Assembly (NCBI GenBank): GCA_951406725.2
Contig: OX597831.1
Location: forward strand, 23,436,001-23,500,000
Reading direction: 5' to 3'
Origin: Octopus vulgaris
Lineage: Eukaryota
Length of the DNA stretch: 64,000 nt
Shown here in pieces: positions 14,173 through 60,125 of the stretch. The position numbers and the translations under genes are program-made. The notes beneath the pieces are model-generated. The model made no database searches. It was not told the DNA's origin and was given only the letters and a program-made list of their open reading frames with translations. Position 1 is the first letter of the stretch, and every line of letters starts with the position of its first letter.

Positions 14173-14346
14173 CACCTAGGACAAGAGTGTGGGATTTATT
14201 TAGTATCTGAGTAAAATCCTACAGGGGTTGCAGCTGTGCTGAGAAAAATAATGGATCTTTAATTTTAGAAATTTGTATTTATTTAATCTATATTAAATAT
14301 TTAACATGCGTTATTCATTTGGTATTAAGCTATAGAATAGGTGTAT

Positions 14347-14498
14347 GAGTGGCTGTGTGGTAAGTAGCTTGCTTATGAACCACATGGTTCCAGGTTCAGT
14401 CCTACTGCATGGCACCTTGGGCAAGTGTCTTCTACTATAGCCTCAGGCCTTGTGAGTGGATTTGGTAGACGGAAACTGAAAGAAGCCCGTCGTATATA

Positions 14499-14546
<48 letters not shown>

Positions 14547-14768
14547 CGTGTGTATATGTTTGTGTCTGTGTTTGTCCCCCCTCAACATCACTTGACAACC
14601 GATGCTGGTGTGTTTATGTCCCCGTCACTTAGTGGTTCGTCAAAAGACACCGATAGAATAAGTACTAGGCTTACAAAGAATAAGTCCGAGGTCAATTTGC
14701 TTGACTAAAGGCGATGCTTCAGCATGGCTGCAGTCAAATGACTGAAACAAGTAAAAGAGTAAAAGAGT
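14347..14768 (+). mobile_element. SINE family A, near full length, with internal (TA/TG)n
   Basis: Head gagtggctgtgtggtaag...ggttcagtcc, CORE-like ccttgggcaagtgtc, microsatellite, then tail ending aagtaaaagagtaaaagag. Confidence 0.9.
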
Positions 14769-15650: not shown

Positions 15651-15667
15651 TATAAAAAGACAAGTGT

Positions 15668-15823
15668 AGGAGTGGCTGTGTGGTAAGTAACTTGCCTACG
15701 AACCACATGGTTCTGGGTTCAGTCCCACTTTGTGGCATCTTGGGCAAGTGTCTTCTGCTATAGCCTCGGGCCAACCAAAACCTTGTGAGTGGATTTGGTA
15801 GATGGAAACTGAAAGAAGCCAGT

Positions 15824-15825
<2 letters not shown>
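15668..15825 (+). mobile_element. SINE family A head
   Basis: Matches the head of 14347 and ends in (TA)n. Confidence 0.88.
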
Positions 15826-15870
<45 letters not shown>

Positions 15871-15955
15871 AAACCACTTGCAGCGTGGAAGGTGTTTATA
15901 AACCACTTAAGAAACACACAAAAGCCGTTCGATTCACTTCAACATTTAAGTTTAA

Positions 15956-16005
15956 TTTGTCAAAATATTTTCGGCGCTAAAATCCGCGACCTGTTCACTG
16001 ACAAA
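15956..16005 (-). ncRNA. Hammerhead-like motif with G3:C8-swapped core
   Basis: Minus strand: tttgtca-GTGAACA-ggtcgc-ggatttta-gcgcc-GAAA-atat-TT-tgacaaa, with a perfect 7-bp helix I. Confidence 0.7.
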
Positions 16006-16052
16006 GTCCGTGCTGCATCACCGTGCAGTCCGTGCTGAGATGCAGCATGGAC

Positions 16053-16102
16053 TTTGTCAGTGAACAGGTCGCGGATTTTAGCGCCGAAAATATTTTGTCA
16101 AA
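16053..16102 (+). ncRNA. Hammerhead-like motif with G3:C8-swapped core (mirror copy)
   Basis: tttgtca-GTGAACA-ggtcgc-ggatttta-gcgcc-GAAA-atat-TT-tgtcaaa, with one mismatch in helix I. Confidence 0.65.
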
Positions 16103-16242
16103 TTAAATTTAAATGTTGAAGTGAATCTAACGGTTTTTGTGTGTTTCTTAAATGGCTTATAAACACCTTCCATGCTGCAGTTGTTTTCGTTTCAGCACAC
16201 GATCTCAGATCAAATTACTTGCTATGCGAGTACATCTCCGTA

Positions 16243-16273
<31 letters not shown>

Positions 16274-16657
16274 ATGCTGTTTGGTTTCCACAGAGCAGCT
16301 TAGAAATAGACTATCCGATAACTACAGCCACAACACATAGACATCTGAAATTAACTTTATATATGGATATATTTCTAGCGTTGTTATCGAACAATATTAG
16401 CATTATAACCACCATATTGAGATATGTATCTGAAAGATGGAGATCTCATAAATAAAGCATTTATATCCTCCCTGCAAAGATGTAGATCTTACAATCGTAA
16501 AAGTAATAACTCTCGTACAGAGATATAGATCTTACAAATATAGCAGTTACGACTACCACACAGGGGTGTATGGTTGGTAAATAAATGCAGGAGTTATAAT
16601 CTCTGTCAGAGATATGGAATTGCTAAGTATAAGAGTTATAACATATATTATAGGCAT

Positions 16658-16866
16658 AGGAGTGGCTGTGTGGTAAGTAGCTTGCTTACCAGCCATATGG
16701 TTCCAGGTTCAGTCCCACTGCATGGCACCTTAGGCAAATCTCTTGGGCAAGTGCCTTCTACTACAGCCTCGGGCCGACCAAAGCCTTGTGAGTGGATTTG
16801 GTAGATGGAAACTGAAAGAAGCCCATCATATATATATGTATATATATATGTGTATATATATATATA

Positions 16867-16925
<59 letters not shown>

Positions 16926-17132
16926 ATGTTTGTGTGTCAGTGTTTGTCCCCCCAACATCACTTGACAACCAATGCTGGTGTGTTTACGTCCCCGTAACTT
17001 AGCAGTTCGGCAAAAGAGACCGATAAAATAAGTACTAGGCTTCCAAAGAATAAGCCCTGGGGTCGATTTGCTCGACTAAAAGTCAGTGCTCCAGCATGGC
17101 CACAGTCAAATGACTGAAGCAAGTAAAAGAGT
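16658..17132 (+). mobile_element. SINE family A, full length
   Basis: Colinear with 14347-14768 and 58396-58815, with a short internal duplication of cttgggcaa. Confidence 0.9.
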
Positions 17133-17359
17133 AAGTGATATGAATCCAGCAAACACACAAATGGAATTTTAACATTGTTATTATTGTTGTCTAGAACCAG
17201 TTAGCTCAAGTAAAGCTGGTTTTTGTACTTAGAAATTATAACCAAATATTAGGGTGCAATCTATTAGCACAAGGCTCTAGAAATACTGCTATAATGGATG
17301 GCAAGGATTACGATATCAGGAGAATATCATCTTCTTCCATTATCTCTTTTTGTTCTTTG

Positions 17360-17771
17360 TGTAGTTCAGGCTCTGGCAAGCGAAGAGAGAAGACTTCAAG
17401 TACAAATGCAATTTACAACTGATTTATTTACAGGATTCACAGGATAGGTGAAGTGTGCTGCTCTCAGCAACCATCTTTAGCTGTGTGCATTGTGTAGTAG
17501 CTCCGTTTGTGCAGGAACTTTGCCTCTGGAGGCACAACATGCAGACAGGCCCAGCCAATGTAGTGTGCTCAGCCAGCACTGCTGCTAAGAGACGGAAAGA
17601 GAAGCTGAATCTGTTTCTGTTTTTCCCTTATATACAGTTTGCCATCGTGAGCCTCGTTGTGATCTCGCGCATGACAAATGGATGCAAGTGAGGTCTCGCT
17701 CCAGTCTCGAAGATGGCAATGGCTGCCACAAGATCTCATCCAATATGGCGCTGACTGCTTGTGCCGCTACT
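17360..17771 (-). mobile_element. Probable solo LTR
   Basis: ~410-bp GC-richer island with tgtag.../...ctac termini. Minus strand has a TATA (tatataa, ~17630) upstream of AATAAA (~17425). Terminal CA is imperfect and no TSD was seen. Confidence 0.45.
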
Positions 17772-17774
17772 CTA

Positions 17775-18480
17775 CTCTTTCACCTAGTTGAGGTTCACAC
17801 AGTGTTTTACGAAGACAGGAGCTGTGCCAAATGTGGCCGTGCTATAATGGATCCTTGCAGAACTACAATTGGATAATTCTAGTACCTGTATGCATTGTAT
17901 ATTGCAAAGGCTTAGTAACTTAAAAATCTGGGGCGATCTGTGGGTGCAGGGTTCTAGTCATACTATTTTCTTACCTAGCTGAGGCTTACACTATGTTTTG
18001 TGAAGACAGGAGTTATGCCAAAAGTGGTCATACTATAATGGATCCTTGCAGTACTTCAGTTGGATAATTGTAGTTCCTGTATGCATGGCATATTGCAAAG
18101 GCTTAGTAACTTGAAAAATTTGGGTGCAGGTTTCTAGTCATACTGTTTCCCCACCTAGCTGAGGCTTACACTATGTTTTGAGATGACAGGAGTTATGCCA
18201 AAAGTGGTCAAGCTATAATGGATCCTTGCAGTACTTCAGTATAGTTCCTGCATGCATTGCATATTGCAAAGGCCAAGTAACTTGAAAGATTTTGGTGCAA
18301 TCTATCGATGTAGGGCTCTAATCCTTGTTTTTCCACCTAGCAGTGGTTTGCATTGTGTTTTGTGAAAGCATGAGCTTAGCAAAAAGTGGTGGAGATATCA
18401 TACATCCTTGACGTGCTTCATTTTGGCTAATTATAATTCCTGTATGTATCATATATCGTAAAAGCTTAATAGCTTGTAAG
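17775..18480. repeat. Tandem repeat, ~180-190-bp unit, ~4 copies
   Basis: acctag anchor at 17782, 17973, 18153 and 18335; shared ctataatggatccttgcag...atattgcaaagg. Confidence 0.9.
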
Positions 18481-18984
18481 ATTACTCGACAGCCAATGTT
18501 TTATGCTGTTCAGTGTTTAGCATTTTTTATATGTCAGTAACAGATAATGGCATGAAAATTCTCTATTGATCATACTTATACTAGTAAATGTTGGTAAATG
18601 CTGGAGATGTTTGAGAATCCAGTTCCAAACTATCAATCTAGTTGTCTCATTCAATTTCAGTGTTGTTTAGAACATTGCATGTTCTCTGTCAGACTTTATA
18701 TATCAGTGCAGAAGTGAAATAAATCATCTGGTCTTATAGATTTGGGGATTAGTAGATGAGAAAAATTAGGTAAAACAGCAGCAGAGCATAGGAGTTAATT
18801 CTATATATAAGAAAGCATTTCTAGTTCTAAAAGATTCTAGACTCAATGGCATGTTGTGTAATCTTCCCAAAATATCTTAAAGAAAATCTAGGTAAGAGCA
18901 TTGCACAGAAAATTTTTAATCTACGACCTAAATTTTTATGGTGCTAAGCATCATCATCATCATTATTATCATCATCATCATAAC

Positions 18985-59679: not shown

Positions 59680-60125
59680 TCGCAAGAAATACAAAGAAAT
59701 GGAGACCAAATGTTAACTGTTGATGGAAGAAAGAAAGCAAGAGTGATCTAACCAAAAGAATAAAAAGTTGAGGTGTGGAGAAATGAAGAAAGTAAACTCT
59801 GAAAATGAATGAGATTAAGTGCAGAGCAAGCATTTTCAATAATTTCCAGCTATTTTATTTTATTTTATTTTATTTTATTTTATGTCATTTTATTTCCTTT
59901 CCAATCCTCCTTCATTTCTATTTTTGCATTTTCTTTATTTTTCTGTTTTCTTTTTCTCTTTCATTTATTTATTTTTTTTTGTTTCATTTAATTTTTTTTT
60001 TTTTTTTTTTGGTTTCTTCTTACTTTGATCATCATCTGTCTTCTCTGCACTTCGGTGATTCTTCGATTCTTCTTTGATTTTTCCTTTTCCCTCCCCCAAT
60101 CTTTGATGCTAGTTTTCCAGTCTTA

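Follow-up and report, generated by a model that had tools for sequence, protein, structure and literature searches.

The window, the whole stretch of 64,000 nucleotides of Octopus vulgaris DNA analysed here, holds a palindrome. Each of its two arms carries a motif laid out like a minimal hammerhead ribozyme, with GUGAACA in the place of the CUGANGA core. The locus raises the question whether this core is a natural exchange that keeps the pair between positions 3 and 8, from which element the arms derive, and whether their back-to-back arrangement serves a ribozyme. The palindrome is probably a two-armed stub of an abundant Penelope-like element (PLE). The pseudo-LTR (pLTR) of the element would carry a minimal hammerhead with a natural G3:C8 pair, likely slow-cutting, and the stub likely derives from capped, uncut RNA. 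As part of the same probable reading, the palindrome is a by-product of integration which, once transcribed through, masks its own hammerhead.

The arms, 15871-16019 and 16039-16187, form an inverted repeat of 149 nt each, 93% complementary, with 19-nt spacing. (TA)n runs border the repeat on both sides, and it is located inside the TA tail of one of the window's short interspersed repeats. A palindrome with two back-to-back motifs, as described by the sequence-only reading, is present; the motif has 2 exact matches in the window and 0 reversed-control matches genome-wide. The features are as follows.

15826..15870, left flank, (TA)n target, tail of the neighbouring short repeat.
15871..16019, minus strand, short arm, inverted pLTR stub, stops at the putative proximal RT start site.
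15956..16005, minus strand, left minimal type I hammerhead motif, core GUGAACA at 15998-15992 (G3, C8), helix I intact (7 bp), predicted cut after U17 at 15963.
16020..16037, strand not applicable, junction, two short patches like the minus strand of the element, G directly before A+1.
16038..16244, plus strand, long arm, pLTR stub from the putative transcription start A+1 (16038) to the putative distal RT start site, one-sided tail of ~60 nt included.
16053..16102, plus strand, right hammerhead motif, core at 16060-16066, a single U.U mismatch in helix I, cut predicted after U17 at 16095.
16152..16244, plus strand, first 31 codons of the PLE ORF; in locus L180 the same frame runs on into the ORF N-terminus.
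16245..16270, right flank, (TA)n target.

Short interspersed repeats with TA/GT tails, which we take to be like octopus SINEs, lie at 14341-14687, 15664-15864 and 16654-17134 of the window. A degenerate tandem repeat with a period of ~180-190 bp occupies 17750-18491.

Read outward, each arm gives the helix I 5' strand, GUGAACA, one extra G, helix II, GAAA, AUAU, UU and the helix I 3' strand. The three-way topology is complete: helix I, core, helix II, GAAA, palindromic III, UH. Present are a Watson-Crick 3-8 pair, U4, G5, A6, A9, G12, A13, A14, A15.1-U16.1 and H17. Helix I, expected as tttgtca/tgacaaa in both arms, has this form in the left arm only; the right arm reads tgtcaaa, with the U.U mismatch. 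A helix II change in both window arms, present in 7/170 family copies, re-registers helix II around a bulged U. The literal CUGANGA is absent, and the motif is filed as a hammerhead variant. A CUGANGA search would miss it, as predicted, but the miss by Rfam is independent of the swap. The Rfam scan of the window gave no hammerhead match, and the control gave 0 hammerhead matches at 3 loci of canonical-core sister copies, so the result in the window is not attributable to G3:C8. With a model from C3:G8 sister copies (families B and C only, described below), the left arm ranks first in the 64-kb window at 15.5 bits (E about 0.006), by a thin margin over a runner-up of 14.7 bits; the right arm scores 8.8 bits.

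Single-strand folding z-scores of the arms are not significant (-1.5 left, +0.2 right). The active-register dimer is predicted at -25.0 kcal/mol, versus -23.6 for two monomers and -27.4 for a slipped 10-bp register. The predicted monomer fold pairs G3 with U17. Each strand has one sense hammerhead, so the motifs of the two arms cannot dimerise in cis. Read-through RNA had been expected to form dsRNA that masks the ribozyme, and folding agrees: a long duplex is predicted on either strand (-247 and -238 kcal/mol). Cleavage by the G3:C8 motif is likely slow or weak, as a dimer or with the protein of the element. Single descriptor matches at window position 59821 (minus strand) and at loci L148, L152 and L206 are candidate PLE-type hammerheads, with C3:G8 or U3:A8 cores.

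The parent element is an EN+ PLE. In locus L180, pLTR, ORF and pLTR follow one another as a direct tandem, and the right-arm sequence of the window enters the ORF there in frame; the one-sided tail is therefore coding sequence. The frame has 1,025 aa and the motifs YSRYVDD and DKS. GIY-YIG domain PF01541 is matched at residues 915-1005 of the protein (E 1.8e-5). The translation has a CCHH motif whose two Cys stand between GIY and YIG, and CCHH is among the defining features of EN+ PLEs in the available text of PMC8557442. RVT_1 gave no match on the 1,025-aa protein and only sub-cut-off matches on 2 of 4 homologues; a PDB sequence search gave 0 hits. Loci L151 and L168 have an inverted pLTR, the ORF and a pLTR. 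The element has its pseudo-LTR by partial tandem, an inverted 5' copy, and a one-sided tail within the ORF start. The proposed origin from an inverted pair of PLE pseudo-LTRs is upheld by the L180 tandem, which runs into an ORF with RT motifs and GIY-YIG.

A long upstream sequence is common to some copies (423 exact matches to the junction) and leads to a CA/TA-rich 3' UTR of ~950 bp and to the ORF end. A protein search gave 134 matches, many at 92-95% identity; 15 exact ORF-continuing copies are present in the genome. A spacing of ~13 aa separates the CX3CxxC linker from the GIY motif that follows it, versus ~30 aa in the Neptune-like L037, and this short linker may point to the Nematis clade. 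Counted from the start-like A, the anatomy is: TATA-like box at -30, hammerhead at +16 to +65, ATG at +115, 3' termini near +145 and +206 in the ORF.

The first GIY-YIG search returned mostly a distinct Neptune-like family. A Neptune-like ORF was rejected as the parent, its L086/L155 link being a chimera or nested insertion with the endonuclease cut off. The Neptune-like family (L038, L040, L041, L044, L049, L055; 3' of GIY-YIG) has 781-aa frames, and some members carry a minimal hammerhead that combines U3:A8 with a palindromic CAUG loop. Many members have tandem CCAAT/CRE-like repeats in the 3' UTR. A non-LTR retrozyme, defined in the available text of 10.64898/2026.07.22.740005 by units in head-to-tail tandem that all have a type I hammerhead, was rejected; the sampled loci are solo or head-to-head.

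The family of the window copies is named family A. Its core pattern, left free at positions 3, 7 and 8, was searched in the genome (G000, 2.8 Gb), with 6,272 exact matches versus 0 for the reversed control. The downstream anchor has 8,639 matches in the genome. G3:C8 is present in 5,747/6,272 core-pattern matches (any N7). Both positions are changed in 14/6,272, none of them to C3:G8, and the remaining 511 carry single changes. G3 and C8, for which the sequence-only reading raised the test of joint fixation in the family, are fixed together genome-wide, with C3:G8 revertants at 0. Covariation at 3/8 was not detected inside family A; 14 double changes are about the expectation from independent mutation. 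As far as the copies record it, G3:C8 is the inherited state of the family, and its fixation inside family A is by descent. No alternative letter at position 3 or 8 was found among the rows listed for four sequencing runs (contigs). A narrow A3:U8 pattern has 20 matches versus 6 in the reversed control, partly family A mutants. Among 170 copies, the shared subfamily variants inside the motif are confined to 4 sites in loop II and a single position where U-A becomes U.G, with 0 in the core; of about 156 sites outside the motif, 22 carry such variants. That the core is spared is only weakly informative, since the core pattern served to choose 49 of the 170 copies.

Two sister families provide a natural comparison of the 3-8 pair. 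Family B has 51% protein identity, 3,287 anchor matches and 1,312-aa frames; 40/40 scored copies are identical over 281 nt. Family C is older, with a same-clade ORF upstream in L246. One sister-family protein of the genome has 100% identity to a record labelled Octopus vulgaris. Both have a hammerhead with C3:G8 at the homologous place before the start codon. Invariant in the alignment of the three families are U4-G5-A6, the helix II start, G-U-C, GAAA and UU. Changes compensated on both sides occur at the 3-8 pair and at a single pair in each of helices II and I. As the homologous site reads C3:G8 in two sister families whose helices are compensated, G3:C8 is a real natural swap, and the earlier claim of a double swap that keeps the 3-8 pair stands. 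U17 is present in all three families. Judged from a remark in PMC3884650, U17 may avoid a G3-C17 trap and may have permitted the swap. Twelve copies of family C (12/30 loci used) have C3 in 12, G8 in 10 and A9 in 9. In family B, C replaces the conserved A9 in 24/25 readable copies, and the loop is a non-palindromic GAAC (L171:4386-4431 on G000:C15; L323-L352). The C9 of this very young family hints, at the level of sequence, at a relaxed catalytic constraint in the clade. The Neptune-like family of the same genome has U3:A8 in 6/30 GIY-YIG loci. With canonical, G3:C8 and C9 cores side by side in three related families, this genome offers a natural series for studying the function of PLE hammerheads.

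Ends of family A copies were mapped for 99 of the first 100 listed anchor matches, in L180 numbering. The 5' ends lie at 716-723 in 46/99, with the mode at A720 (17); the 9 scored at 735 stem in part from alignment artefacts, the 7 at 745 belong to one composite repeat, and two rows are duplicates. The 3' ends form two clusters holding 90/99, namely 39 at 861-870 and 51 at 921-927. The long arm of the window aligns to 720-926, the family's most frequent 5' end and most frequent long 3' end, and the short arm maps to 721-869. The start of a TATA-like box lies 30 nt upstream of A720. The base before A720 in promoter-bearing copies is C (54), T (20) or G (1). Counted over the copies, it is a purine in 688 (87 G and 13 A in the first 100) and a pyrimidine in 832. 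Bases upstream of the extra G vary between copies, which points to one extra, non-genomic G and not to an exon. An extra G in L1 insertions marks full-length capped templates and reflects the mRNA cap (available text of PMC11702581). The junction G before A+1 in the window is likely cap-templated; some G junctions of the family could come from microhomology.

The 5' boundary might instead be a 3' splice site, the stubs then coming from spliced or splice-cut RNA and not from a capped start. CTAAC, which resembles a branch point, stands before the boundary together with a pyrimidine tract and YAG, and the intron of D. virilis Penelope ends at helix I (available text of PMC4209133). The modal end, however, contains AG (720, not 722), the bases upstream beyond G are not constant, and a TATA-like box stands at -30. 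A splice origin is considered quite improbable, and a capped start is preferred.

The predicted cut site is at 778. A 5' end at this position is found in 1/99 stubs, a fold-back junction, and 95/99 stubs span the site. Among ORF-continuing copies, 7/15 start at 716-723 and 0/15 at 778. No 5'-end peak at the cut site was detected in family A (99 stubs, 15 ORF-continuing copies); in family B 1/30 ends fall within 2 nt of it. Run-off copying of capped RNA that had not been cleaved likely produced the stubs. The same counts are compatible with a motif that is hammerhead-derived and dead or nearly so, its G3:C8 having come by drift or for RNA shape and the family multiplying without cleavage. Family B, which has C9, thrives, dimer formation is predicted to be unfavourable, and PAc insertion in vitro is unimpaired by hammerhead mutants in the available text of PMC11167929. 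Against a dead motif, a double transversion restoring the 3-8 pair, combined with compensation in helices I and II, would hardly be expected unless a contact of the active fold were under selection, and cut RNA, perhaps no template, would leave no genomic trace. A dead motif is held unlikely, and a slow-cutting hammerhead remains the preferred reading.

A DNA transposon (MITE or Helentron-like) with a hammerhead likeness arisen by chance would accord with the TA targets and with an apparent subterminal inverted repeat in L021. It would also accord with L059:930-1380 (G000:C26), which has ~15-bp inverted termini in TA and holds the last 115 nt of a family A stub, as if captured. Yet the sequence enters the RT/GIY-YIG ORF and recurs as the 3' pLTR, the apparent 'TIR' of L021 is a tail fold-back patch, and a homologous canonical hammerhead is present in the sister PLE families. 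The form of this idea with fixed inverted-repeat termini was rejected, the ends being a start-like site and two sites in the RT ORF, and L180 refutes it. A DNA transposon is scarcely credible. Locus L021 itself (G000:C30:8690627-8693835) is a tandem array of several short-arm units split by (TA)n, each beginning with a tail fold-back patch.

About half of the sampled loci have the inverted pair; it is the ordinary form in which the family inserts and no ribozyme device. The mapped sample has 56 head-to-head rows and 49 solo copies. The head-to-head rows comprise 48 long+short, 1 long-long, 1 short-short and 6 unclassified. Long+short accounts for 48/50 classifiable pairs, or 41/43 with 8 composite copies collapsed. 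Loci L104, L105, L107, L108, L111, L266, L269 and L304 are one palindromic insertion with an identical junction, amplified inside another repeat. L319 and G000:C20:54253009 have a 5'-truncated ORF-continuing copy joined to few telomere-like CCCTAA repeats.

The pairs might be made by fold-back self-priming of one cDNA, or by later hairpin repair, and not by two-ended RNA priming. The arms of one pair mostly share subfamily alleles (23/350 diagnostic sites differ, versus 36% for random pairs), and minus-strand patches and microhomology are frequent at junctions. Both termini nevertheless also occur in solo copies (34 long and 13 short of 49), which makes both real RT starts. At least 2 diagnostic sites differ in 6/39 pairs, and the window pair differs at 3/10; such pairs are impossible from one molecule, although later gene conversion could explain them. 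Fold-back is somewhat unlikely, and priming at both ends of the break is preferred.

In the preferred two-ended reading, Pol II would start at the A 15 nt before the hammerhead, and the transcript would be capped. The RT-endonuclease would nick (TA)n DNA, and both break ends would be primed on RNA at two internal sites in the ORF start. Each cDNA would run off at the cap, adding C opposite the cap. Head-to-head joining of the two cDNAs would give one long and one short arm. A further proposal is that, in this PLE clade, the hammerhead fold is kept mainly as a module for RNA pairing or protein docking. A single dimeric RT-endonuclease particle would hold two capped, uncut RNAs, with palindromic helix III and swapped helix I as possible contacts, and each RNA would be primed from one break end at a different internal site. 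The thousands of long+short palindromes would then be fossils of this mechanism with two RNAs, and the G3:C8 (A) and C9 (B) cores would be detuned ribozymes that keep the fold and spare the capped template. This proposal is speculative and rather doubtful.

Known insertions of EN+ PLEs are compared on the available text of PMC8557442 and of Schostak et al. 2008 (PMC2377424). Shared are the inverted arrangement, a tail at one end, (TA)n targets and a promoter/start in the pLTR; insertions with an inverted 5'-truncated copy are reported by Craig et al. 2021 (PMC8557442). Different are the 5' ends of the octopus stubs, piled at one start-like site with an extra G and not random truncations, the pairing of long and short arms, and the tail of ~60 nt versus 30-40. 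The octopus element has a TATA-like box, unlike the TATA-less promoter of Penelope. Among the literature matches listed, nothing relevant to capped PLE stubs with an extra G was found. The available text of PMC11167929 reports for PAc in vitro that both strands undergo extension and that the tail is defined by two internal RT starts; cleavage needs protein and is dispensable for insertion, and the main substrate is uncut RNA. For retroelement biology the copy ends weigh more than the core. They lend in vivo support to this in vitro view of PLE integration, with its two internal RT starts, priming of both strands and an uncut template. The ends also suggest that the abundant solo pLTR stubs copy the capped transcript 5' end completely by run-off and are not random truncations.

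With the minimal type I hammerheads that metazoan PLE pLTRs carry (Cervera and de la Pena 2014, PMC4209133, available text), the motif shares an extra nucleotide after A9, G10.1-C11.1, palindromic loop 3, U17 and the pLTR position. Opposite-strand hammerhead pairs 100-700 bp apart and a natural U3:A8 covariant are already reported there. The extra nucleotide of family A is G, outside the H consensus of that paper though in one row there. In its Fig. S3, 0/56 representative PLE hammerheads begin with G3, unlike octopus family A. Covariation at 3-8 in nature is also described by Perreault et al. 2011 (PMC3088659, available text), with U3:A8 as the named variant. The available text of PMC11014351 and PMC6765202 has nothing on G3:C8. 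Natural G3:C8 was not found in the literature searched, only laboratory mutants; Lunse et al. 2017, the source likeliest to list PLE core variants, is outside this comparison. If the motif cleaves, it is a natural G3:C8 hammerhead, with a core otherwise known to us only from laboratory rescue mutants. Descriptors fixed to CUGANGA or UUGANAA would miss thousands of copies, and 'no hammerhead' calls in some PLE clades may need rechecking. The closest laboratory counterpart is the PAc double mutant C3G/G8C, the same swap, which partly restores cleavage in a PLE hammerhead (PMC11167929, available text). A remark in the available text of PMC3884650 (data not shown) gives G3:C8 as poorer with C17 than with G17. 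Unlike the laboratory mutants, G3:C8 with U17 is the wild-type state of >5,700 octopus copies.
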